This document shows, in pieces, positions 2,423 to 13,300 of a stretch of DNA of 64,000 nt. A model generated the notes under the pieces. That model was given only the letters and a program-made list of their open reading frames with translations. It ran no database searches and was not told the origin of the DNA. Position 1 is the stretch's first letter. Each line of letters begins with the position of its first letter. Made by a program: the position numbers and the translations under genes. This stretch comes from a virus (Duplodnaviria; Caudoviricetes): the IMG/VR virus record IMGVR_UViG_3300032227_000993. The stretch is one strand, 5' to 3'.

Positions 2423-3037
2423 TTAAGGATTGCTTGGTACTAAAGCCATTGTAATATTGCCAGTACCATTAGTAAATGTTACTGCATCTGCGCCAGATTT
2501 AGCTGTGGTTACTACCACGTTGCTGGCTGGTTGGAAGAAGTTAACAAAATACTGTACATTATCGTAGCCTAAACCGTATTTGTTGGTCAAACGCTGTAAA
2601 TTTACGTTACCCACGTTGCCTGCTCCGTCTGGAACGCTTACGTTGATGCTCATTTGGTTCACAGTTAAACTACCGTTGGCCACGTCAGCCAAGAAAGCCA
2701 CGCCTGTAACACCAGAAGTCACGCCAGTAACCAGGTACTTGCTTTGGCCTTTTTGACGCACGATTAATGCTTCTTCGTTTTGTGTGCCATCAACGTTGGC
2801 AAATGTAGAAACTACCGGGAATGTAGCACTACCGCCATTTACGTCAACAGTACTGTTGTAAGCTGTTGTTTGTAGGTTTAAAATATTACCGCCAACTACG
2901 CCGTAAAATTGTGTGCCTGTTAAACCGCCAGGTGTAACTGGATCAGTTAATGTGTTGATCTGCGGAAAGCCAGCGTCAACTGCCAAGCCAGGTGTACCTG
3001 CATAGCCTTGTTTTTGAATTTTTAGTGGACGACCCAT
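2423..3037 (-). CDS. Virion structural protein (MGRPLK-type N-terminus)
   Basis: 204-aa ORF with strong AAGGAG SD, its own late promoter and terminator, and optimal-looking codons. Confidence 0.6.
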   Translation of the reverse strand: MGRPLKIQKQGYAGTPGLAVDAGFPQINTLTDPVTPGGLTGTQFYGVVGGNILNLQTTAYNSTVDVNGGSATFPVVSTFANVDGTQNEEALIVRQKGQSKYLVTGVTSGVTGVAFLADVANGSLTVNQMSINVSVPDGAGNVGNVNLQRLTNKYGLGYDNVQYFVNFFQPASNVVVTTAKSGADAVTFTNGTGNITMALVPSNP

Positions 3038-3136
3038 GTTGTTTTCTCCTTAAAGAAGTCCGATGCTGGTTCTAGCCAGCTACGCTGTGGGTATTAATCT
3101 CAGCATAAAACGCAGGATTGCGTTGACAAGTATTTA
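3038..3136 (-). promoter_or_regulatory. Late promoter (TAAATA 3131-3136) plus structured ~90-nt 5' leader
   Basis: Three abutting hairpins (3109-3124, 3081-3107, 3065-3080) between the promoter and the SD. Confidence 0.55.
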
Positions 3137-3186
3137 GCACCCTGTTACTTTTTTAAAGTGTGCGTTTTATTAATGTAAATATGAGT

Positions 3187-4338
3187 ATGAACTACAATGA
3201 ACTTATTGCCGCGGGCAATCAACTCCGCGCAGAACACCGGCCAGAAGAAGCATTAAAATGCTATGCTACAGCCTTGATTGATTATCCTGACTACGCTGAT
3301 GCGTTTAACAACTACGGCAACGTGATCCGCGAGTGCGGTTTTCCCACACGAGGTATTCCTTTTTTACAAAATGCCTTGGCCATTGACCCAGGTCATGCCA
3401 CAGCCGCTTTTAATTTGGCTGTGTGCTATTTGTTGGCTGGTGACTATGCCAAGGGCTGGCGCCAGTATGAAACCCGCTGGAACTATGAGCATCTCAAGGG
3501 CCTGTTGCCAGCATTTAGCCAGCCTAGATGGACTGGACAAGAGTTGGCCGGTAAGACCCTGCTGGTTTTGGGCGAGCAGGGCCACGGGGATAATATCCAA
3601 TTTATACGTTTTGTAGAACAGATTGTTGGCCTGGGAGCAAAGACCATTGTTCAAGTCACCAGCACCTTGGTTCCCTTGTTTAAAGAATCTATTTTGGCGC
3701 CTACTGAAATTATCAGTCACGAGGATGCTGTGCCGGAGTTTGATTACTGGACTCCCATTATGAGTTTGCCAGGTCCCCTGGGTATCACATTGGAAAACTT
3801 GCCGCATAAAATGCAGTATCTACGTGCTAGTGCTGCCAGTGTTCAAGAGTGGTCCAAAAGATTAGGTAAAAAATTCAAATTGCGCATAGGGTTTGCTTGG
3901 TCGGGGCGCAGAGATAGCTGGATCAATCAACACAAGGCCATGCCTTTTGATGTCATGCTGGCGTTGATTAAAAGTTGCCCAGAATACGAGTGGTACAACT
4001 TACAGTTAGATTGTACCAAGGAAGAAGAAGCAGAATTGGTGTCGGCTGGAGTCAAGATTTTCCCTGGCACTATCAATAGTTTTGCTGATACTGCCGGATT
4101 GGTTAGCCACATGGACGTGGTGATTGCTGTGGACACAGCCATGGCACACTTGGCTGGCTCACTGGGGCGACCAGTCTGGATTCCTTTGAATCAGTTTGGG
4201 CAGGATTGGCGTTGGTTGTTGAATCGTGAAGATAGCCCGTGGTATGCCAGTGCTAGATTATTTCGTCAACCGGCCCGGGGCGACTGGAACTCGGTCACTG
4301 CTCGAATACAAAAATTCTTGACGTTTTTTAAAATTTAA
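3187..4338 (+). CDS. TPR-repeat + glycosyltransferase family 9 (heptosyltransferase-like) protein
   Basis: N-terminal TPRs (YADAFNNYGNVI..., HATAAFNLAVCYL), then EQGHGDNIQF, GFAWSG and DVVIAVDTAMAHLAGSLGRPVW GT-B motifs. Start refined to 3187, 5 nt after TAAATA. Confidence 0.85.
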   Translation: MNYNELIAAGNQLRAEHRPEEALKCYATALIDYPDYADAFNNYGNVIRECGFPTRGIPFLQNALAIDPGHATAAFNLAVCYLLAGDYAKGWRQYETRWNYEHLKGLLPAFSQPRWTGQELAGKTLLVLGEQGHGDNIQFIRFVEQIVGLGAKTIVQVTSTLVPLFKESILAPTEIISHEDAVPEFDYWTPIMSLPGPLGITLENLPHKMQYLRASAASVQEWSKRLGKKFKLRIGFAWSGRRDSWINQHKAMPFDVMLALIKSCPEYEWYNLQLDCTKEEEAELVSAGVKIFPGTINSFADTAGLVSHMDVVIAVDTAMAHLAGSLGRPVWIPLNQFGQDWRWLLNREDSPWYASARLFRQPARGDWNSVTARIQKFLTFFKI

Positions 4339-4343
4339 GTCAC

Positions 4344-4368
4344 AAAAAAGCACCCGGCGGTGCTTTTT
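4344..4368. terminator. Bidirectional intrinsic terminator
   Basis: AAAAAAGCACC-CGGC-GGTGCTTTTT between convergent genes. Confidence 0.85.
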
Positions 4369-4373
4369 GTTTG

Positions 4374-4694
4374 TTAGTTGCCAGTAAATGAGTATGCGGC
4401 GCCACTGGTAAATGTACCGCCTGTGATGGTAATTGTCTGTGCTCCTGGATCTGTGCTGACTACAGTAGCTCCAGGTATTTGATTTACTAGCCATCCTGGA
4501 CCAATGTCATTGTAACTTGGTTTAGGAGAATAGGGCCATCCGCCACCACCTTGGAAGAAGAATCCAACAGCGCCGTCGCCGCCGGCTACATTTTGAATTT
4601 CAATGGTGGACATACCTTGATAAATTCCGTGATTACCAAACTTAATACCGCCACCTACGCTAATGCCACCGCCGATTGTGATTGGTGCTGCCAT
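4374..4694 (-). CDS. Small putative virion protein (IGGGIxxGGGI N-terminus)
   Basis: 106-aa ORF with AGGA SD; shares its N-terminal motif with the 49-aa ORF at 9232-9381. Confidence 0.6.
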   Translation of the reverse strand: MAAPITIGGGISVGGGIKFGNHGIYQGMSTIEIQNVAGGDGAVGFFFQGGGGWPYSPKPSYNDIGPGWLVNQIPGATVVSTDPGAQTITITGGTFTSGAAYSFTGN

Positions 4695-4716
4695 GATTTA
4701 TTTTCCTTTTAAAATA

Positions 4717-5754
4717 TTATGACCAGTAAATGATCTCTTTGGTCGTTGGGTTGTATGCCATGTTAAAAAATCCTGCTGGCAAACTGCCGTTGACTATGGT
4801 ACGAATTGGTGCTACTACTAAAGTATTTGCTGTAGTGTTGTTTAAGTAAGTGCCAGTAGCGTTAAGAACAATACTATTATTTCCTTGTGCGTTAGCACCT
4901 GCTTGTGTTCCAATAGCAATAGCGTTAACACCTTGATTGTTTACTCCGGCTTCAAACCCAATAGCAATAGAAAGTTCGCCTTGTTCTACCGAAGCAGCAC
5001 TTGCGCCAATGGCAATAGCATTGGCACCTTGTGTATCATTGGCAGCGGCACGACCAACAGCAACAGCACCAACACCTTGATCAACTTGACCAGCAATGAA
5101 TCCAACAGCTACTCCGTCTTTTCCTTGAACGGAGCCGCCTGCTTGTTGACCAACCGATACAGCAGTTTCGCCTTGTTGAGCGGCTCCGGCGGCCGAACCA
5201 ATGGCAACAGCACCATCGCCCTGATCAGTGTGTGCGGCGTTTTGTCCAATGGCAATAGCAGCGTATCCTTGGTCGGTGTCGCCTACAAAGTTACCGATAG
5301 CGATTGCGCCATCTTTTTGGTCTGTTGTTCCAGCTTGTGAACCAATGGCAATGGCCAATTCCGCTTGATTTGTAACACCGGCGTTGGTACCAATAGCAAT
5401 AGTGGTATTACCTTGTGTGTTGGCACCAGCGTTGGTACCAATAGCAATAGCATTGGCGCCCTGAGCTGTGATATTGCCTGCTTCTTGGCCTAACGCGATC
5501 GTAGTAGGACCTGCAGCATTATTTTTGTCGCCTAAGGTAGCCCAGGTTGTTGCTCCGCCGCCACCGCTGATGGCAGTGAGTTGACCTAAGTTATTACCTA
5601 TGTAAAGTGCAGGAGGATCTACTACTAAATTAACCACTAACTCACCCGGTCTAGCATTGCCATCATAGTTTACAATGGTCTCTTGCGCATTGTCTTTCAT
5701 TACTGCGCGGCTAATGCCGGTAATATCTGAATATGGGGGTGGGTTGTTTGCCAT
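4717..5754 (-). CDS. Fibre-like protein with YadA/Hep_Hag-type head repeats
   Basis: Many ~14-aa repeats of type AIAIG--AG---QG. Start refined to MANNPP at 5754 (TAAATA 5778-5783, AGGA SD). Confidence 0.75.
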   Translation of the reverse strand: MANNPPPYSDITGISRAVMKDNAQETIVNYDGNARPGELVVNLVVDPPALYIGNNLGQLTAISGGGGATTWATLGDKNNAAGPTTIALGQEAGNITAQGANAIAIGTNAGANTQGNTTIAIGTNAGVTNQAELAIAIGSQAGTTDQKDGAIAIGNFVGDTDQGYAAIAIGQNAAHTDQGDGAVAIGSAAGAAQQGETAVSVGQQAGGSVQGKDGVAVGFIAGQVDQGVGAVAVGRAAANDTQGANAIAIGASAASVEQGELSIAIGFEAGVNNQGVNAIAIGTQAGANAQGNNSIVLNATGTYLNNTTANTLVVAPIRTIVNGSLPAGFFNMAYNPTTKEIIYWS

Positions 5755-5797
5755 CTGGTGTCCTGTATGTTGTATTGTATTTAGTATTTGAGCCAAC

Positions 5798-5819
5798 AAA
5801 AAAGCACCCTTGGGTGCTT
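5798..5819 (-). terminator. Intrinsic terminator
   Basis: AAGCACC-CAAG-GGTGCTT followed by a U-run. Confidence 0.8.
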
Positions 5820-5900
5820 GATTGCGTTAATATTACCGAGTTATCCGACCCACCAGCCGAACGAGTTATACTCCGAACGGTCAGGAGTTTGCTTTGTTAC
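5798..5900 (-). ncRNA. Candidate ~100-nt small RNA
   Basis: TAAATA at 5904-5909 followed by an ATG-free segment with two hairpins (5870-5888, 5843-5862) and a terminator (5798-5819). Confidence 0.45.
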
Positions 5901-5957
5901 TAGTATTTAGTGGGTACTAGACAAGCCCAATAAAAACTTTAAAAAGTCAATTGCAAT

Positions 5958-6266
5958 TCACCTAGATTTTGCAATTTCATCTTTGACTTCGTTGTATGTT
6001 CGAATTATCTGTAGAGTCGGTGTAACCAATTTATTAGTGTAAGGGGTAGACATTGTCTGCCATTCTTCTTCACTGACCGAACTAATAACCATGATTGAAT
6101 ACTCGTGTCCGTCAGCGGTGTGCAGTTTTACTGTGTCAAAACCCAAGCCAGACTGACTTGCTGTGAGTAGTGCTTTACCTAGCTCTTTTAATGCGGCTTT
6201 TTCGCCTACTATGTAGGCGGTTGTTTGCGGTTCGTCGTGCGGGTATAGATGTAATCTTGATTTCAT
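5958..6266 (-). CDS. Hypothetical protein coupled to the DnaE-like gene
   Basis: 102-aa ORF overlapping the upstream stop by 4 nt (ATGA). Confidence 0.65.
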   Translation of the reverse strand: MKSRLHLYPHDEPQTTAYIVGEKAALKELGKALLTASQSGLGFDTVKLHTADGHEYSIMVISSVSEEEWQTMSTPYTNKLVTPTLQIIRTYNEVKDEIAKSR

Positions 6267-7936
6267 TGTATATGGGCAATTTCTTTCAAAGTCAATTTTT
6301 TACTTTTATAAACTTTAACACATTCTGATCTATTTGTATAGTCCAATTTGCCCTTTCCCCATAATATTGGACTGTCGTGGAATTTGGCCGCATAAGGCAA
6401 CATGACGTCTAAATAACGACCGTTGCCTGTGCCCAGAGTCACAAAGGTCACATGATTTTTAGGGCCACTACGAAACACACGATAGTTAGCCACCAGCCCT
6501 AAAAATTCAACTTGTCCAGGTGTGCGTACTTCGGTACAGGCCGGTATGAATCGCTCACTGGACCAGCGTCCGGTAGCGGCCAGCTCAGCACATTCGCCGC
6601 CGGTGGTTATGCTGGGCACAGCGCCGGCCAGTTTGGCTTCTTGCCAGTAGACCCAGCGACTGTAACTGCCTTGACAGTGGCGCAGGCAAGCAGACCAAAA
6701 TGCCTCAGGGTTGTGTGCCTTGTGATAGGCCAAGGCCCAGATCAGTCGCCCCAGATTGGTGGCATGAGCACGGCACAGACCAAAGTGACTGAGCTCACGC
6801 AGGGCCGATAGTACAGCATCGCGCCGGGGGTGATCGCCAATCAACTGCATAAACTCATAGATTTTTTCTTCATTTTTCTTGGCAAATGCTCGGCGCCACA
6901 TATCGGCGGTGTATTGGTCACATTGCAGAATTTGGCTGATCAGCTGGATTGCGTCATCTTCAAACACTATGGTACCGTCTAGAGTGTCTTGACTGAAATC
7001 TTGAAAGGCCGACGCTTTGCGGCGTCCTTGTGTGGCCACGGGTCGTATCAGGGCCGTGGCCAAGGTACAATCGCTTTTACTAGAGACTCTAAGTGCGCGG
7101 AAAAGTCGTTTCATAGCAGGACTTTCGCCTTGTGTTACTCCTAACACATCACCGCGTGCCAATAACGCACTGGTAGCTTCGTCATATTCTGGATAATCAG
7201 CCAGTGGCCGTTGATCTATGTCCCATAGCTGGCTTAATCCACGATTGGCCAGGATGTCTATTTTGAAATGTTCAAGATCTTCTACTTCATATTTGTCTAG
7301 TAAGATCTGATTTTCGCCATTGATTAAACTTCGAGGAACAGCACGATCAAATATTATAATACCGCCGCAATGCTTTGATATACAACGTTTTTTACCTAGC
7401 AATTTATTAGTTATTCTGTTGGCTTCGGCTATTTCTTCTGGGGGTAATACTTGATCAAATTCAAATCCTCGTTTTAGTGTGCCTTTGGCACCTAATCTTT
7501 TGGCAGCCTCTCTACGAGCCGATTTTTCTTTGTACATGACATAGTTGCTGACTCTAGCACTTTGACCAGGCCAACGATGGAATATGCGATTCATTACCGT
7601 GGCCTGTTGCCAATGCGGAAAGTCTAAATCAATATCAGGCAAATCATCTCGTTTAGGATTCATGAAACGAGCCAAGGGTATGCGTTCAGCAACCGGATCT
7701 ATGTCACTAATGCCCATTAGCCAACATATCAAACTAGACCCTGCGCTACCTCTAGTGATATGTGGGATATCTCGAGTAAGATCAAGTATTTCTCTTACAC
7801 GTAAAAAATGTTTTGCAAAACCTAATTGTGCTACAAGTTCTAATTCTTCTTGTAATCTTATTTCATATTCTTCAATGTTGGGTAGGGGTCTAGTAAATTT
7901 TTTAATTAAAGTTTCAAGCGGTTCATATCTGTCCAT
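6263..7936 (-). CDS. dnaE: Compact C-family DNA polymerase (DnaE alpha-subunit-like), lacking the PHP domain
   Basis: Motifs RGSAGSSL, RF-NP-R-DLPDIDLDF (catalytic Asp pair), HCGGIII, KIDIL, GVTQ-ES, RAHA and a C-terminal OB-like segment. Only 557 aa. Confidence 0.88.
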   Translation of the reverse strand: MDRYEPLETLIKKFTRPLPNIEEYEIRLQEELELVAQLGFAKHFLRVREILDLTRDIPHITRGSAGSSLICWLMGISDIDPVAERIPLARFMNPKRDDLPDIDLDFPHWQQATVMNRIFHRWPGQSARVSNYVMYKEKSARREAAKRLGAKGTLKRGFEFDQVLPPEEIAEANRITNKLLGKKRCISKHCGGIIIFDRAVPRSLINGENQILLDKYEVEDLEHFKIDILANRGLSQLWDIDQRPLADYPEYDEATSALLARGDVLGVTQGESPAMKRLFRALRVSSKSDCTLATALIRPVATQGRRKASAFQDFSQDTLDGTIVFEDDAIQLISQILQCDQYTADMWRRAFAKKNEEKIYEFMQLIGDHPRRDAVLSALRELSHFGLCRAHATNLGRLIWALAYHKAHNPEAFWSACLRHCQGSYSRWVYWQEAKLAGAVPSITTGGECAELAATGRWSSERFIPACTEVRTPGQVEFLGLVANYRVFRSGPKNHVTFVTLGTGNGRYLDVMLPYAAKFHDSPILWGKGKLDYTNRSECVKVYKSKKLTLKEIAHIQ

Positions 7937-7984
7937 GGATGCCTTTGGTGTGATGTTTTTTTTGATGCCTTACCAAGATATTTA
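7937..7984 (-). promoter_or_regulatory. Late promoter and leader with two AAGGCATC motifs
   Basis: TAAATA at 7979-7984; AAGGCATC at 7964-7971 and 7938-7945, the latter over the ribosome-binding region. Confidence 0.55.
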
Positions 7985-8005
7985 TTGACAGATATTTTGG
8001 TCAAC

Positions 8006-8029
8006 AAAAAACCTGCCAAAGCAGGTTTT
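8006..8029 (-). terminator. Intrinsic terminator (probably the original capsid-gene terminator)
   Basis: AAAACCTGC-TTTG-GCAGGTTTTTT on the minus strand. Confidence 0.8.
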
Positions 8030-8051
8030 CTAAAACAAAGTAATTCTCTGA

Positions 8052-8078
8052 TTAAGAGAAAGACAAATTTTGAATGCC
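8052..8078 (-). pseudogene. Orphan remnant of the major capsid protein C-terminus
   Basis: GGC ATT CAA AAT TTG TCT TTC TCT TAA = GIQNLSFS*, versus AVQNLSFS* at the end of gp23 (10318-10344). Confidence 0.75.
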
Positions 8079-8091
8079 TTGCGGTGCTTGA

Positions 8092-9219
8092 TTATGCTCC
8101 AACAGGTGTTACAGTAACAATAATACTGGGACTTGCTGGATAGCCAACTGTGACATTTCCTGCCAGGGTTGGAAATCTAAAGTTAGTATTAGTTGCTGCA
8201 TAGGCTATTTCATAGTAGTCGCCAGCGGCGGTCACATTGGCCATGATATTCCAACTTTGGACTGTTTGAACAGTATTATCTAAAGTAAAAAATCCGCCTG
8301 TATCGGGAACGGCTGTGCCGTTTTTCTTGAACCATATGTATGCTGTAGAGCCGCCGCCGCCCACAGTTTTGTCAATCTGTGCGCTGAACTGGATGTTGTA
8401 CAAGCCAGTTTTATTAATAATAATACGACTGTTACTGGCACCTGTACCCAACTGTATATTATTGTGCCCGTCGGTATTGTTTAATAAAAAGTTATAGGCT
8501 GTGTTGGCCGAAGCTACAGTTTGTGTGAGATTACTCCAAAATTGTCCGTAAGCTGGTGTATAACTGATGTTGCCCGAAACTGATAAATTACCGAGTAAGG
8601 TCACATTACCAGTGGCTGGATCAGCATCATTAAATGGATCAATAATGATATCGCCAATACCGGCCACTGAGTTTGAAGATAGATACAACTCGTTGTCGGT
8701 GGTTGCCAAGGCTGAAGTGTTTACCAATGGTGTGGCAATGTTCACAGCTGAAAACAAAGTGTCGCCCAACACTGATAAGTTTCCACTGATTTCTGTAACA
8801 GTGGAACTGACAACTACAGAATTGTTGGAGCCGGCAATGTTGAGTGTGATATTGCCCGAGTTGGCCAGGGTAAGTGTGGTGTTGCCGGCTATTAGGTTTG
8901 CTTGTAATCCAGGAACCCCGTTGACTTGTAGTACGCCGTTGAAAACTGTAAGTTCAGCTGTGAGATTACTGGCCACATTTGAGTCGGTGATGTAAATTGT
9001 TCCTGGGCCTAGCCATAAGTTGGCCCAACGATTAGTGGCGTTGCCCAAGAAATAGGTGTTGTCAGCAGCAGGAGTAATGTTGCCAGCTGTGGTGTTTACA
9101 TAGGTTTTGAGTGTAGACCCACTCACGTGATATGTTGCGCCTGAGGAGTCAGTGGGCAACAATGACGTATCTGTCATGGTGGTTAAGTTAGGTAAGCCTG
9201 TGATATTTACGTTTGCCAT
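8092..9219 (-). CDS. Fibre-like virion protein with probable C1q/TNF-like (BclA-C-type) C-terminal domain
   Basis: MANVNITGLP N-terminus; ITPAADNTYFLGNATNRWANLW fibre motif; C-terminal YGQF...TGLYNIQFSAQI...WFKKNG...YYEI jelly-roll pattern. Confidence 0.6.
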   Translation of the reverse strand: MANVNITGLPNLTTMTDTSLLPTDSSGATYHVSGSTLKTYVNTTAGNITPAADNTYFLGNATNRWANLWLGPGTIYITDSNVASNLTAELTVFNGVLQVNGVPGLQANLIAGNTTLTLANSGNITLNIAGSNNSVVVSSTVTEISGNLSVLGDTLFSAVNIATPLVNTSALATTDNELYLSSNSVAGIGDIIIDPFNDADPATGNVTLLGNLSVSGNISYTPAYGQFWSNLTQTVASANTAYNFLLNNTDGHNNIQLGTGASNSRIIINKTGLYNIQFSAQIDKTVGGGGSTAYIWFKKNGTAVPDTGGFFTLDNTVQTVQSWNIMANVTAAGDYYEIAYAATNTNFRFPTLAGNVTVGYPASPSIIVTVTPVGA

Positions 9220-9231
9220 TTTATTTTTCCG

Positions 9232-9381
9232 TTAAAGTGTTACCAAGTCATCGCCAGAAAGCGTGACCAGTTGGTCGCCAGCAAGCGTAACAAGATTTTG
9301 AGGAGCAGGTGGGGTCACAGCAAAATTTCCAATGCTAATGCCGCCGCCAATTTCAATACCTCCACCTATCGCTATCGCCAT
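9232..9381 (-). CDS. 49-aa mini-protein (below the ORF-track cutoff)
   Basis: Hand translation: MAIAIGGGIEIGGGISIGNFAVTPPAPQNLVTLAGDQLVTLSGDDLVTL*. AGGA SD upstream; motif shared with 4374-4694. Confidence 0.7.
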   Translation of the reverse strand: MAIAIGGGIEIGGGISIGNFAVTPPAPQNLVTLAGDQLVTLSGDDLVTL

Positions 9382-9426
9382 GATTCGGATTCCTGTTATT
9401 ATATTGTATTTAGCTGTTTTTACAGT

Positions 9427-10200
9427 TTACACCGTGCCAGCGAGCGTAGGCGCTATAACGGGCTTATGTTTACACTTGTCGCCGTGAAAAGCGTTGTATC
9501 TTGCTTTGCTTGCTTGTACTGGGCAATACGGACATTGTATTTTTGTTTGGGTGTAATGTTTACCTTCTGCTATTAGTTTAGCTACGGTGGCACTAATAGC
9601 ATCGCCTTGCTTTTTAGGTTTAGCTTTTCCTTTTGTGCCTTTAGATATTGCGTCTCGCTGTTGTTTACTCATTGGGCCGCGGGCTTTTCCTTTAAGCGAT
9701 TTAGAAATATTTTCTTTTTGTTCAGCTGTTCTTTTTTGCCCGGTGCGTTTTGCTACACCTTTAGCAACAGACTCCGCACTCATTACTCTGCCCTCGGCTG
9801 CTTTTTTATTTTTTTCTATTTGGGCGACAGACGCTGGTACGCCTTTGTTATGAGCAGGGCGGCCTTTCATAGTAGCTGAATGTACTATTGAAAATTCTTT
9901 TTTAAGGTTCTCGTACACTCTGCTTGTAATTTTAGTTTCGTAGCGTTGAGTACAATGACCGTTGCGTTTCATTCCGTTTAACGCATAAATCATTTTTGCT
10001 CTTGCTTCGCCTTTTTGTGTTTTTACTAACAGCCAATGGCAAATAAAATGTTCCCTTGCTGTTAAATTTACTAAATTTTCTTTGTTATCACTCCCGCCCA
10101 AACTGACAGGAATAATATGGTGGCGTTCTGTGTAGCCATCTACGGTGCGTAGTTTAGCGTTTGATACAATAGAGTTATACCACTTTTCGTATTTGTTCAT
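9427..10200 (-). mobile_element. Free-standing HNH homing endonuclease with NUMOD3-like repeats and a C-terminal Cys/His motif
   Basis: ERHHIIPVSLGGSDNKENLVNLTAREHFICHWLL (HNH); basic K--IS-SLKG repeats; CPYC...HGDKCKH tail. Confidence 0.85.
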
Positions 10201-10205
10201 AATAG

Positions 10206-10244
10206 TATTTAGTATAGTTTAACATTCACGTAATATTATGTCAA
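10206..10244 (-). promoter_or_regulatory. Dual promoter of the HNH gene: sigma70-type plus late
   Basis: TTGACA (10239-10244)-N17-TAAACT (10216-10221) with a TGn extension, then TAAATA (10206-10211) 5 nt before ATG. Confidence 0.6.
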
Positions 10245-10245
10245 C

Positions 10246-10270
10246 AAAAAACCCACCGAAGTGGGTTTTT
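10246..10270 (-). terminator. Intrinsic terminator after the capsid gene
   Basis: AAAAACCCAC-TTCG-GTGGGTTTTTT (UUCG loop). Confidence 0.88.
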
Positions 10271-10317
10271 GTTTGTTGCTTTGTTGTCCAAATACTTTGG
10301 ACAAAACTTTTCGTTGA

Positions 10318-11514
10318 TTAACTAAACGAGAGGTTTTGTACCGCAATTTCACCAACATAGTCTGCTGCATTTCCAAAGGAACTGGCAGTATTCGTGAGTT
10401 CGACGAATCCGTAGCGTGTCATAAATGATACGACTGGTTCGAAAGTTGTTGGATCCAATACAACACCACTACTCATCAGGGGAATGTATGGGCAATAGAA
10501 CGCAGCGGCATCAGCCTCTGAAGAACCTTTGTAACCAACCAATACTGATTGTGTATCTGGAGCATAGCTGTTTACAAACACACGGAGTGCGCCATTCAAT
10601 GTACCAACAAACTTGGTGTTTGTAGGAGCTTCAAATGTGCCTTCTGTTGTGCGAGCAAAAGCACTAGTTGTAGCAGATTGCAATACTGTTAAAGCAGCTG
10701 AACTAACAACAGCCCAGTTACCAGCGCCACGACGTGTGCGCTGAGCGATCAAGTTAGCAACGCGGTTGATCAACACAGCCAAAGCTGCATGCTCATCACC
10801 CACGAATGTTGCTGTACCAGATACAGTAGCTTGGTTGTATGTGTACTCAGTAGCAGCCAAAGCACTCAATGACAAGAGGATCTCTTGGTCGATCTCAGCA
10901 GTAATTTCTTGTGCGAGAGCAGCCATGATTTCAGCTTCTACGTCAATACCGTGCATAGCTTGTGCGTCTTGAGCAGATTCAAATGTCCAACGAGCTTGTA
11001 ACTTACGTGTCTTTGCTTCAACAGCTTGTTTCAAGATCTGGATACTGATCTGCTTACCGCCTGTACCTTCCATTGTACTTGTGTTGTTACCAGTATAACC
11101 AGTAGCAGTTGTAGTACCTTGTGGAACTGTAGAGTATGCTGTAGCAATGGTGAATGGGCTTAGGGCTTCTTGACCAGCTGTTACAGATGTTGCGGCTAAA
11201 CTATTGTCAGTCAAAGACTGAGCATAGCGTACACGCAATGTGTGGATTTGGGATACTGGGCCAGTCATTGGCTGTACACCAACCAACTCGTTAGCGATAA
11301 CGGTTGGCATTACACGACGGATAACTGGAAGAATCACACGATTCAAAGTAGCGATGTTACCACTAGCTGTTGAACCTGCTGATGCGTTTTCTTTCAAATA
11401 CTTACGTGTGTTTTCGAGGATAACACTCATTGAGTTACGCTTAGAACCTTGCAAACCTTCTAAGAGTGCGTCTTTAGTGTCGCCCCAACGGCTTTCTAAT
11501 AAATCTTGTGACAT
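10318..11514 (-). CDS. gp23: Major capsid protein, T4 gp23-like
   Basis: LVGVQPMTGPVSQIHTLR, VEAKTRKLQARWTFESAQDAQAMHGIDVEAE, YCPYIPL, FMTRYG motifs. Confidence 0.97.
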   Translation of the reverse strand: MSQDLLESRWGDTKDALLEGLQGSKRNSMSVILENTRKYLKENASAGSTASGNIATLNRVILPVIRRVMPTVIANELVGVQPMTGPVSQIHTLRVRYAQSLTDNSLAATSVTAGQEALSPFTIATAYSTVPQGTTTATGYTGNNTSTMEGTGGKQISIQILKQAVEAKTRKLQARWTFESAQDAQAMHGIDVEAEIMAALAQEITAEIDQEILLSLSALAATEYTYNQATVSGTATFVGDEHAALAVLINRVANLIAQRTRRGAGNWAVVSSAALTVLQSATTSAFARTTEGTFEAPTNTKFVGTLNGALRVFVNSYAPDTQSVLVGYKGSSEADAAAFYCPYIPLMSSGVVLDPTTFEPVVSFMTRYGFVELTNTASSFGNAADYVGEIAVQNLSFS

Positions 11515-11544
11515 TTAAGTCTCCTTTTTCTAATATCTTTTAAA

Positions 11545-12645
11545 TTACAGCCCTGCCAACCGCTTCAAGTCGATAACGTTGCTGTTTTCTTCAGCTTCAC
11601 TATCTTGCTCTTGGACACGGGCAGATTTATCGCCAGTTACTTCAGACAATGACTCAGTGATTACTTTATGGGCTTTCACTGCGCGACTTTCCAAAACAGC
11701 CGGTAGATACTTTTCGAATGCGTTTTTCAAACGTGGAGTTTGAACGCTTTCGAGTAAATTACGCATAACTTCTGCTTTCTCTTCGTTAAGAGGAGCCAAC
11801 AGTTCGTCTAATGTAGCTTGACGCTGATTAGATTCTTTAAGAATACGTACTTCACGTTCTTTGGATTCAACTAAGACAGTTGCTTTCTTAGCGAATTTGA
11901 TGGCTTCAGCAATCTTTTGATCTTTCTGAGCAATAGTGTTGTGTAACTTGCGAACTTCCGCTTTCTCATTTAAATGAGTTGCGCCAAATTCTGCACTGTA
12001 TGCTTCAAAAATACGACGTCCAAAATTGTTCTCGCGAGCAACTTGGATATCTTCTTTCAATTGACTGAGTTCAGCCTTGAGGTGTTTGGAAACAACTTGT
12101 GTCATCTTTTCAGCAGATTCTTTTACGAAACGGCTCTTCAAACTTTCCAACTGGCCACGTGCTTGAGAAACTAAGCGAACTTTGGTTTCTACAACATCAC
12201 GCTTGTCAGCGGCAAATTCTTGGATTTCACGAGCTAACGCATGAACGATGAAACCTTCCAATTTCTGGAGGCCTTCGTTATGTGTTTTACGGTCTCTGCG
12301 CAATTCGCCAATTTCTTCTGCCAATTTAGAAACCATGAAGCCGTTGAACTTGGCTGCTGATTCTTTCATTGTGCGTTGGAAGTTAACGCGGTCTTCGGCA
12401 AGTGCTTGCTTTTCAGCACGTACTTGCTCAACTTCTGCGATGAGACTTTCTGTTACCATACGATCAAGGGCTTCGACCATCACTTGTTTGTCATGCTCAT
12501 AGCGTTGTGCAAACTCTTCGCGGAGTTCTGCACGTGCGGCTTCTTTGGCTTCAACAATCTTGGCTTCCCAAGCTTCGTTGATTTCAGCTTTCGCTTCCTC
12601 AGTAACCAGCTCACTATCTAATAACGGCTTTAGTGCGTCTAGCAT
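11545..12645 (-). CDS. gp22: Prohead scaffolding protein, gp22-like
   Basis: Acidic coiled-coil protein between protease and capsid genes; likely start MLDAL at 12645. Confidence 0.8.
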   Translation of the reverse strand: MLDALKPLLDSELVTEEAKAEINEAWEAKIVEAKEAARAELREEFAQRYEHDKQVMVEALDRMVTESLIAEVEQVRAEKQALAEDRVNFQRTMKESAAKFNGFMVSKLAEEIGELRRDRKTHNEGLQKLEGFIVHALAREIQEFAADKRDVVETKVRLVSQARGQLESLKSRFVKESAEKMTQVVSKHLKAELSQLKEDIQVARENNFGRRIFEAYSAEFGATHLNEKAEVRKLHNTIAQKDQKIAEAIKFAKKATVLVESKEREVRILKESNQRQATLDELLAPLNEEKAEVMRNLLESVQTPRLKNAFEKYLPAVLESRAVKAHKVITESLSEVTGDKSARVQEQDSEAEENSNVIDLKRLAGL

Positions 12646-12646
12646 T

Positions 12647-13300
12647 TTATTTCCCTTCAATCTTGAGACCACGTATCAAACGAATTACTTCGTTTTGAAC
12701 GTATCTCTGTGCTTTATTGCTCTTAGCTGGGTCCTTGTACATTTCCAAAATCTTTTGTCCGCCGGTATGATTTAACAAACCTTCGTAAATTGCTGTTGGA
12801 TAAGCATTGGGAGCACTTGGCTGAGCAACTACATCAACAGTGACTATTTCAAAGTCACTGACGTGTCCATTAGCGTCGTTTACATTTCCAGATCCACGAC
12901 TGCTAACACCTAATTTAACACCACTGTCTAACATGGTCTTGACCAGTTGGCCCATTGGTGTAGGTAATATCTTGAGTTTGCCATAGCCACAAGGACCATC
13001 CATCCACATATTTTCAATCATGTGACTCACACGATCCAAATTAATCTTCAAGTCATCTGGGTGATCTACTTCACCCAACACAGAGTGACCTGTTTTAATT
13101 TGTTCGTTGATGGTGCCTACTGCTTTGGCGATTTCATTCACAGGATATACACGCTCATTTGCATTGCGAACTCCGCCTTCAATGCAAATACCCTTCATGT
13201 AAAGGGTCTTACCAGAACCATCAGCGGCTTCCTCAGTCAAAAGTTCTACTTTTGCCTGAGAGAAGCTTAGATGTTCCTTAAGATAAGTGTTGCGAGCCAT
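12647..13300 (-). CDS. gp21: Prohead core protease, gp21-like
   Basis: NANERVYP, GEVDHP and KLGVSSRGSG catalytic motifs. Confidence 0.93.
   Translation of the reverse strand: MARNTYLKEHLSFSQAKVELLTEEAADGSGKTLYMKGICIEGGVRNANERVYPVNEIAKAVGTINEQIKTGHSVLGEVDHPDDLKINLDRVSHMIENMWMDGPCGYGKLKILPTPMGQLVKTMLDSGVKLGVSSRGSGNVNDANGHVSDFEIVTVDVVAQPSAPNAYPTAIYEGLLNHTGGQKILEMYKDPAKSNKAQRYVQNEVIRLIRGLKIEGK

Follow-up and report, generated by a model that had tools for sequence, protein, structure and literature searches.

An orphan capsid-gene end behind a free-standing homing endonuclease in a T4-like phage: a probable scar of imperfect homing

The closest described counterparts of the locus reported here are the free-standing seg and mob endonuclease genes of T-even phages (PMC2988022). 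These lie in intergenic gaps beside essential, conserved genes and are present in some relatives and absent from others; the flanks of occupied and empty sites differ, with a gradient toward the site ("intronless homing", co-conversion, marker exclusion); and the genes have late-type promoter motifs and encode an HNH or GIY-YIG domain joined to DNA-binding modules of the NUMOD3 type. In T4, the GIY-YIG gene segD is situated between genes 23 and 24 (PMC2988022). These traits, the NUMOD3-type modules less clearly than the others, recur in the stretch analyzed here, 64,000 nucleotides of the IMG/VR virus record IMGVR_UViG_3300032227_000993 (hereafter the window), where an HNH nuclease gene follows a gp23-type major capsid gene, and an orphan copy of the 3′ end of the capsid gene lies farther downstream. 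We put at roughly 0.6 the probability that this arrangement arose from a nuclease-made break in a nuclease-free allele, mended by homologous exchange within the capsid gene on one side and by an illegitimate join in a terminator loop on the other.

The window forms part of a 361-kb scaffold, assembled from metagenome data, that represents an uncultured T4-like phage from fresh water. Context was drawn from ~180 related contigs, whose loci are given L numbers; the relatives sampled include 80 fetched through the capsid protein and, as a further set, the best 80 IMG/VR homologues of the window's HNH protein. Public phage genomes match the window at 66-68% nucleotide identity, and only within the capsid gene. 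The elements on which the argument turns are the following.

10318..11514, minus strand: gp23-type major capsid protein gene, 398 aa (Pfam Gp23, E=1e-95)
10318..10353, minus strand: recoded capsid 3′ end, last 11 codons plus stop, with Leu CTC, Ser TCG, Phe TTT and Ser AGT (codon tables, association tests)
10247..10270, minus strand: terminator 1, after the capsid gene (fold -26.5 kcal/mol, z -4.3)
10217..10233, minus strand: degenerate version of an element conserved in relatives, immediately before the late promoter of the nuclease gene (>3 mismatches to any capsid end)
9427..10200, minus strand: free-standing HNH homing endonuclease gene, 257 aa (phrog_655 'homing endonuclease', E=1.6e-51)
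9232..9381, minus strand: mini-ORF (short open reading frame) of 49 codons, called as a gene in two assemblies
8092..9219, minus strand: fibre-like gene, 375 aa, N-terminal part like fibre/spike proteins (phrog_1171, E=9e-4)
8077..8093, minus strand: truncated terminator of 17 nt, consisting of 5′ arm AATCAAGCACC, loop GCAA and the first two 3′-arm bases GG; overlaps the fibre stop codon
8075..8076, minus strand: junction bases CA, in neither parent (against the L103 terminator and the nuclease-free capsid consensus)
8043..8074, minus strand: orphan capsid 3′ end of nuclease-free type, with (I)QNLSFS codons, stop and conserved post-stop bases TCAGAGAAT (homology to relatives)
8006..8029, minus strand: terminator 2, the orphan end's own stem-loop and T-run; folds well and is followed by TTGACC at 8004-7999

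The orphan capsid end and its junction

The capsid reading frame (10318-11514, minus strand) is uninterrupted and ends in ...EIAVQNLSFS*, and its protein is 80-97% identical to those of IMG/VR relatives. On the same strand, 2.2 kb downstream of this true end, positions 8078-8052 read GIQNLSFS*. An earlier note on this DNA, made from the sequence alone, took the whole of this peptide for a capsid remnant fused to half a terminator, and all the elements it described lie where it had placed them. The remnant itself is slightly shorter than proposed: homology to capsid genes begins at TTCAAAAT (8074) and covers QNLSFS*, whereas the 'Gly' codon derives from the terminator half and the 'Ile' codon (8075-8073) spans the join. 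The in-frame GI... reading is thus incidental. The coding part with its stop occupies 8052-8074, and conserved post-stop bases continue to 8043.

The orphan end is genuine homology, and chance is excluded. Positions 8074..8043 are 90.6% identical over 32 nt to the capsid 3′ end and post-stop bases of L013, and the orphan end is 88.9% identical over 36 nt to the capsid 3′ end of L016; together with terminator 2 it matches L032 at 77.6% over 76 nt (E=6e-8) and L059 over 68 nt. Over 30 nt, terminator 2 by itself shares 97% identity with the terminators that follow the capsid gene in L041 and L169. Among 137 loci scanned with mismatches allowed, the window's orphan was the sole distal direct-strand copy within one mismatch of a real capsid end, and the arrangement with a distal orphan end was found in none of the relatives compared. 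The orphan end is untranslated, because it has no start codon and is out of frame with the fibre gene.

The two capsid ends of the window belong to different allele types. Codons and post-stop bases of the orphan match those of empty (nuclease-free) loci, and the functional end carries the codons of occupied (nuclease-bearing) loci. This supports the suggestion of the earlier note that the incoming DNA brought a replacement capsid C-terminus, and bears out its expectation that cassette-free relatives would end their capsid gene as the remnant does, in codons and post-stop bases alike. As for the empty allele that the note would look for, capsid ends of relatives match the orphan plus terminator 2, and no near-identical empty allele was among them.

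Upstream of the orphan, the truncated terminator shares its arm with two intact ones, at 5802-5819 and 4348-4365. The nearest relative, L103, whose capsid and HNH DNA is 86.6% identical to window positions 11334..9417, has an intact version at ~2055-2085, with identical arm and GCAA loop, a 3′ arm and a T-run (fold -19.7 kcal/mol); it is located ~200 nt after an HNH gene 87% identical to that of the window. The right-hand join is illegitimate and cuts a terminator; the cut terminator had already been seen in the earlier note. Because the CA bases at the join occur in neither parent, the overlap there is 0-2 nt, and the GG microhomology that the note read at this point would be no longer than that.

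A fusion of two strain variants during metagenome assembly is another explanation to consider. The window does come from a metagenome scaffold, and strain variation at the site is high: a JGI 3300013295 contig of 1384 nt (L267) encodes an identical 398-aa capsid protein with other synonymous codons in the last dozen positions and a TAG stop, and ends 58 nt past the capsid gene. This is strain-level recoding of the capsid end with the protein unchanged. Assemblers, however, join at shared k-mers; since the half-terminator and the orphan share none, and since a second contig from other samples has the identical gene order and the identical 155-nt spacer between the fibre and DnaE genes, an artefact is most improbable. 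Exact-pattern scans of metagenome and viral contigs for the junction and for the leader between terminator 2 and DnaE gave no match, and exact-protein look-ups returned only the same arrangement or the 1.4-kb contig that stops 58 nt after the capsid gene.

The orphan might instead have been retained for function, as a co-opted regulatory piece whose stop-codon hairpin, with terminator 2, ends the fibre transcript and insulates DnaE. Terminator 2 does now end the fibre transcription unit, and is the sole terminator after the fibre gene because the truncated one cannot fold; moreover, nuclease-free alleles conserve both the hairpin at the stop codon and the bases that follow it. Against this, a terminator alone would suffice without a coding remnant, and no relative has the arrangement. 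Retention for function would explain why the piece was kept, not how it arose, and is compatible with either origin discussed below; we consider it very unlikely as an account of the locus.

The nuclease and the recoding of its site

Judging from its sequence and placement, the HNH gene encodes a free-standing homing endonuclease, and the capsid 3′ end is the site of its whole family, in agreement with the identification in the earlier note. The protein scores 21.7 bits with the Pfam HNH profile (cut-off 21.4), and its catalytic motif (E-HH...N...H) is intact when aligned to a solved HNH. The C-terminal DNA-binding part is NUMOD3-like with a CxxC...HGxxC motif. NUMOD3 itself is weak in the window protein (E=4.3); residues 108-244 align at 34-50% with the NUMOD3 and CxxC...HGxxC tail of GIY-YIG proteins that occupy the site in some relatives, in which NUMOD3 scores at E=1e-9 to 1e-13. 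The two kinds of occupant have only this tail in common, the GIY-YIG forms matching Pfam SegE_GIY-YIG. SegE-like occupants were seen in L014, L016, L024, L032, L034, L041, L044, L045 and L057. At L216 (6994-8487), a restriction-enzyme-like gene stands in front of a C-terminal remnant (...YARWHGDNCK...) of an earlier occupant.

The position of the family is fixed and its presence is not. All 80 of the best 80 homologues (42-87% amino acid identity) sit 100-140 nt after this capsid gene, and among the 80 relatives fetched through the capsid protein a nuclease directly follows the capsid gene in about a quarter, with none in the others. In the simplest empty loci (L010, L015, L018 and L068), the capsid gene is followed by 64-70 nt and then a convergent TPR gene. 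Presence and absence at a fixed site, allele-specific differences, and a capsid gene uninterrupted by intron or intein are the marks of a homing endonuclease of this kind. HNH proteins also occur as packaging-associated partners of terminase, kept beside terminase and portal genes across a phage group. That description does not fit the window's gene: with 46 empty loci it is dispensable, and its place is behind the capsid gene rather than beside terminase.

Occupied and empty alleles are separated by synonymous codon differences in the last ~11 capsid codons, compared across 132 unique loci (86 occupied, 46 empty). The capsid stop is other than TAA in 61 of the 86 occupied loci vs 2 of the 46 empty ones (Fisher 1e-14), TGA often taking its place, and the Phe codon at the capsid end is TTT in 47/86 vs 2/46 (Fisher 1e-9). 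These shifts recur independently in both capsid clades (endings ...SFS and ...TFQ). The association between codons and nuclease climbs toward the 3′ end of the gene, with peaks at codons -11..-8 and -3..stop, and is at background more than 35 codons upstream. The orphan's breakpoint, at codon -7/-8, falls inside the recoded block and between the two peaks. On a tree built from upstream capsid sequence, the nuclease changes state at least 31 times, and in 13 phylogenetically independent pairs the codons track nuclease status (Gly-11 GGR 10.6:0.1, p~0.001; Phe TTT, p~0.016; stop codon, p~0.04).

Compared with L103, the capsid end with terminator 1 is the window's most diverged stretch (54-74% identity, flanks 85-99%), and the DNA-binding part of the nuclease is the second most diverged. 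A sliding nearest-neighbour analysis for a co-conversion tract in the window's own capsid gene was without resolution because all relatives are 80-93% identical.

Several relatives carry other scars. In L136, L137, L139, L142, L148 and L150, an orphan end of occupied type, a copy of the last five codons plus TGA, lies 0-1 nt after a functional end of empty type, and L042 has a more diverged, truncated copy at the same place. The tandem copies have an inverted partner of 14-19 bp just upstream of the HNH gene, such that the pair flanks the terminator (duplex z -3 to -5.7). Pairing at long range in the RNA, of the capsid end with the region upstream of the HNH gene, was significant only in the seven tandem-remnant loci and is no general feature. 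In L004 (9190-9219, minus strand), nine capsid codons and the stop (LAVQNLSFS*) are repeated in inverted orientation and meet the real stop at a shared palindrome, an arrangement that resembles what fold-back repair leaves behind. Such scars, found in relatives at the same few codons, support a break-prone site.

Two further features accompany the nuclease gene's leader. Directly after terminator 1, a consensus scan finds a sigma70-like promoter (TTGACA at 10244-10239, 17-nt spacing, TAAACT at 10221-10216), and a late-promoter-like CTAAATA lies at 10212-10206; the layout of terminator 1 and promoter is the same in relatives. In ~45 occupied loci, a conserved element 63-110 nt after the capsid stop resembles the inverted capsid end with at most three mismatches; it differs between the two capsid clades and was not seen at that place in empty loci. 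A scan with 89 reference 18-mers gave 76 matches in real sequences vs 35 in shuffled ones, so that the chance background is not negligible. We regard the element as a possible operator of the nuclease gene. Separately, a ~15-nt conserved motif with GGGATGGGAAG lies after the capsid stop and before the terminator in relatives of both clades (L010, L013, L068, L006); it is not present anywhere in the window.

The variable slot and the origin of the arrangement

The gap between the capsid gene and the TPR gene is a variable gene slot as well as the homing site of a free-standing endonuclease family, mostly of HNH type. In the window, the capsid gene is the last of a head-morphogenesis series on the minus strand (portal, prohead protease, scaffold, capsid), and the slot extends beyond terminator 2 as far as the TPR gene. 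Head genes before the capsid gene, and the elements beyond terminator 2, are the following.

12647-13300, minus strand: prohead protease
11545-12672, minus strand: scaffold
6263-7936, minus strand: DnaE-like polymerase gene without PHP (Pfam DNA_pol3_alpha, E=2e-37)
5958-6266, minus strand: 102-aa gene coupled to DnaE
5796..5957, minus strand: non-coding spacer ending in terminator 3 (AATCAAGCACC-CAAG-GGTGCTT..., stem 5802-5819)
4717-5754, minus strand: YadA-head-repeat fibre gene
4374-4694, minus strand: 106-aa gene
4348..4365, minus strand: terminator 4, arm in common with terminator 3
3160..4338, plus strand: convergent TPR/glycosyltransferase-9-like gene (Pfam), the right-hand anchor of the slot

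We propose that a single recombination between a nuclease-bearing and a nuclease-free genome accounts for all the junctions. The nuclease-bearing parent would have contributed the recoded end, terminator 1, the HNH gene, the mini-ORF, the fibre gene and an AAGCACC terminator with a GCAA loop; the nuclease-free parent would have contributed the ordinary capsid end, terminator 2, the DnaE module, the spacer, and everything from terminator 3 onward. In this history, HNH would cut the nuclease-free allele within the last ~11 capsid codons. The left side would be mended by homologous exchange inside the capsid gene, importing the recoded end, the nuclease and the DNA trailing it. On the right side there would be no usable homology, so that copying would halt in the loop of the terminator hairpin and the copied strand would be joined illegitimately to the cut target end at codon -7. 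What results would be a recoded end that functions, followed by the cassette, a halved terminator and, with its own terminator still attached, the orphaned ordinary end. Copying could plausibly halt at a hairpin, and a nuclease break would be the simplest source of a free end at that place. The roles of the parents are interchangeable, as capture of a cut nuclease-free fragment by a nuclease-bearing genome would yield the same product. The homology at the scar, the intact terminator of L103, the site-specific and polymorphic nuclease family, and the allele-specific recoding are the observations from which we infer cleavage by HNH, its position, and which parent was donor or recipient.

Modules might instead have been shuffled without the nuclease, through illegitimate or short-homology recombination between co-infecting genomes in a hyperplastic gap, with HNH as a bystander. 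Four terminator-promoter composites border modules in the window, and the AAGCACC-type terminator occurs 51 times in 36 loci. Terminator 3 is a direct repeat of the truncated terminator, and the block 8076..~5806 is flanked by direct repeats of AATCAAGCACC-N4-GG; deletion of this block would restore a perfect terminator. Nuclease-free relatives hold varied cargo in the same slot, and in phage RB49 crossovers at promoter-early stem-loops (PeSLs) have been mapped to the loop portion of that stem-loop (PMC2839356). The DnaE gene and its 102-aa partner behave as a movable module, because their positions and orientations differ among relatives: in the complete relative G001 (L184 9445-11423), ~200 kb separates them from the capsid gene; in L226 and L216 they adjoin it in inverted orientation; and in none of 80 DnaE loci is the capsid gene upstream of DnaE in the same orientation.

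The join itself fits such shuffling less well. Stem-loop terminators with sigma70-like promoters are indeed repeated at the module borders, as in PeSL cassettes; a homologous exchange between two of them is not what is found, because the partner at the left join is capsid coding sequence and not a second terminator. Exchange between terminators would be possible only at the right border (5802-5824). In addition, out of a 1.2-kb gene the breakpoint falls in the ~30 nt over which occupied and empty alleles are most unlike; the two copies of the capsid end are of opposite allele classes; and the other scars, which are confined to occupied loci, gather at these same few codons. Shuffling without the nuclease is the main rival reading, and we hold it to be rather unlikely.

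Repair of a nuclease-made break, which we prefer, has several points to set against it. The recognition site of the putative cleavage is drawn from polymorphism only. Seven occupied relatives have a functional capsid end of the nuclease-free type, and recoding is therefore not strictly required. The slot gains and loses genes where there is no nuclease, and the terminator-promoter repeats alone could shuffle them. The location of the breakpoint near the gene end is partly a matter of survivorship, since long direct repeats would delete the insert and only short remnants would be stable. The orphan end retains most of the block that differs between alleles and would have had to escape re-cutting. 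Finally, no near-identical empty allele, in which terminator 2 and DnaE would come directly after the capsid gene, turned up among the relatives.

The earlier note had gone further and suggested that the nuclease may be what spreads adhesion or decoration cargo, a proposal that the relatives do not bear out. In none of more than 100 other occupied loci do the mini-ORF and this fibre gene stand beside the nuclease. L103 has the same nuclease lineage and terminator without the cargo, and nuclease-free loci also bear cargo. Only the ~0.9-kb nuclease cassette is present in 12 of 20 occupied loci, and the amount of extra DNA does not differ between occupied and nuclease-free loci (p=0.31). Hitch-hiking of cargo has happened here once at most; because this genome alone has the mini-ORF and fibre gene together with the nuclease, it would be a single event and not a pattern.

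A broader form of the idea is that illegitimately mended nuclease breaks are a recurrent route by which foreign modules, such as fibres and the DnaE polymerase, enter the slot behind the capsid gene. This we find doubtful. If it were true, the homing endonuclease would be an engine of gene gain, and the breakpoints of such scars would mark its natural cut site.

The cargo genes have affinities of their own. The mini-ORF at 9232-9381 has no family match in profile searches; it may be a truncated paralogue, because all it has left of its family, to which the 106-aa gene at 4374-4694 and a 148-aa gene of L103 belong, is the Gly-rich N-terminal motif. Members of this family, with the motif (IGGGI.. 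/ IGPGW..) repeated, were noted beside fibre genes at 9232-9381 and 4374-4694, in L103 (2120-2566) and in L097 (3373-3696). The C-terminal head of the fibre protein (residues 210-373) is 69-72% identical to the heads of L088-L090 fibres that have a different N-terminus, and is swappable. Its neighbours in a protein atlas are all viral, some of them C1q-like. No donor was identified for the fibre gene: its relatives (L084-L091) stand in other contexts without the AAGCACC terminator.

The spacer at 5796-5957 carries a late-promoter-like motif. A spacer and terminator homologous to it directly follow the HNH gene in L103 (~1890-2085; 84% over 63 nt). The spacer may encode a small RNA and, in this nuclease lineage, serve as the right-hand edge of the cassette. 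Searches found no tRNA genes within the window, and no group I intron or other relevant Rfam family at E<=1 in window positions 3000-12000. The Rfam freshwater-2 RNA motif (RF02980) is present at 3035-3125 on the minus strand (57.8 bits, gathering score 49.9), upstream of a 204-aa gene at 2423-3037; the stretch is 82-93% identical in many relatives, and its flanks ~65%.

Comparison with known systems

The underlying biology of the locus is well known. The window adds a further free-standing homing endonuclease locus, with an unusually legible repair scar, and leaves the accepted picture of intronless homing unchanged. T4 segD is antisense and has no known target, whereas the window's nuclease gene is co-oriented with the capsid gene and its target is presumably the capsid 3′ end. 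Two nuclease classes with similar DNA-binding tails of the NUMOD3/zinc-finger type are found at this one site, and the ~130 allele comparisons amount to a natural experiment on target-site recoding, including a stop-codon switch.

In trans-homing, as when T4 mobE mobilizes the I-TevIII intron (PMC2988022), DNA beside the nuclease is likewise carried along in break repair, and in the HEG islands described by Barth, Dunham and Seed (2023, PMC10448857), nucleases cluster near capsid and other essential genes. The cargo in those systems is common to the exchanged alleles, whereas here it is in one genome only. An imperfectly mended homing event can nonetheless put foreign genes right behind an essential structural gene.

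PeSL cassettes (PMC2839356, PMC4122927) resemble the slot in that a terminator and a sigma70-like promoter bound non-essential modules, and in that repeated copies serve as exchange points in the hyperplastic regions of T4-type phages, with a crossover mapped inside the loop. Their exchange is homologous, from PeSL to PeSL, whereas the left join in the window connects a terminator loop to coding sequence. The inverted capsid-end-like element before the late promoter of the relatives' nuclease genes (13-18 of 18 positions) recalls the autorepression operator of I-TevI, which matches the homing site at 15/20 positions (PMC2988022). The element is degenerate in the window, and the likeness in the relatives is one of sequence only.

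Finally, we note how the locus departs from the usual product of seg and mob homing. That product is clean and erases its own history, whereas the window retains an orphan half of the target. The recoded incoming end and the original end are both kept, non-homologously joined, and the locus would therefore give a natural estimate of the position at which the enzyme cuts.

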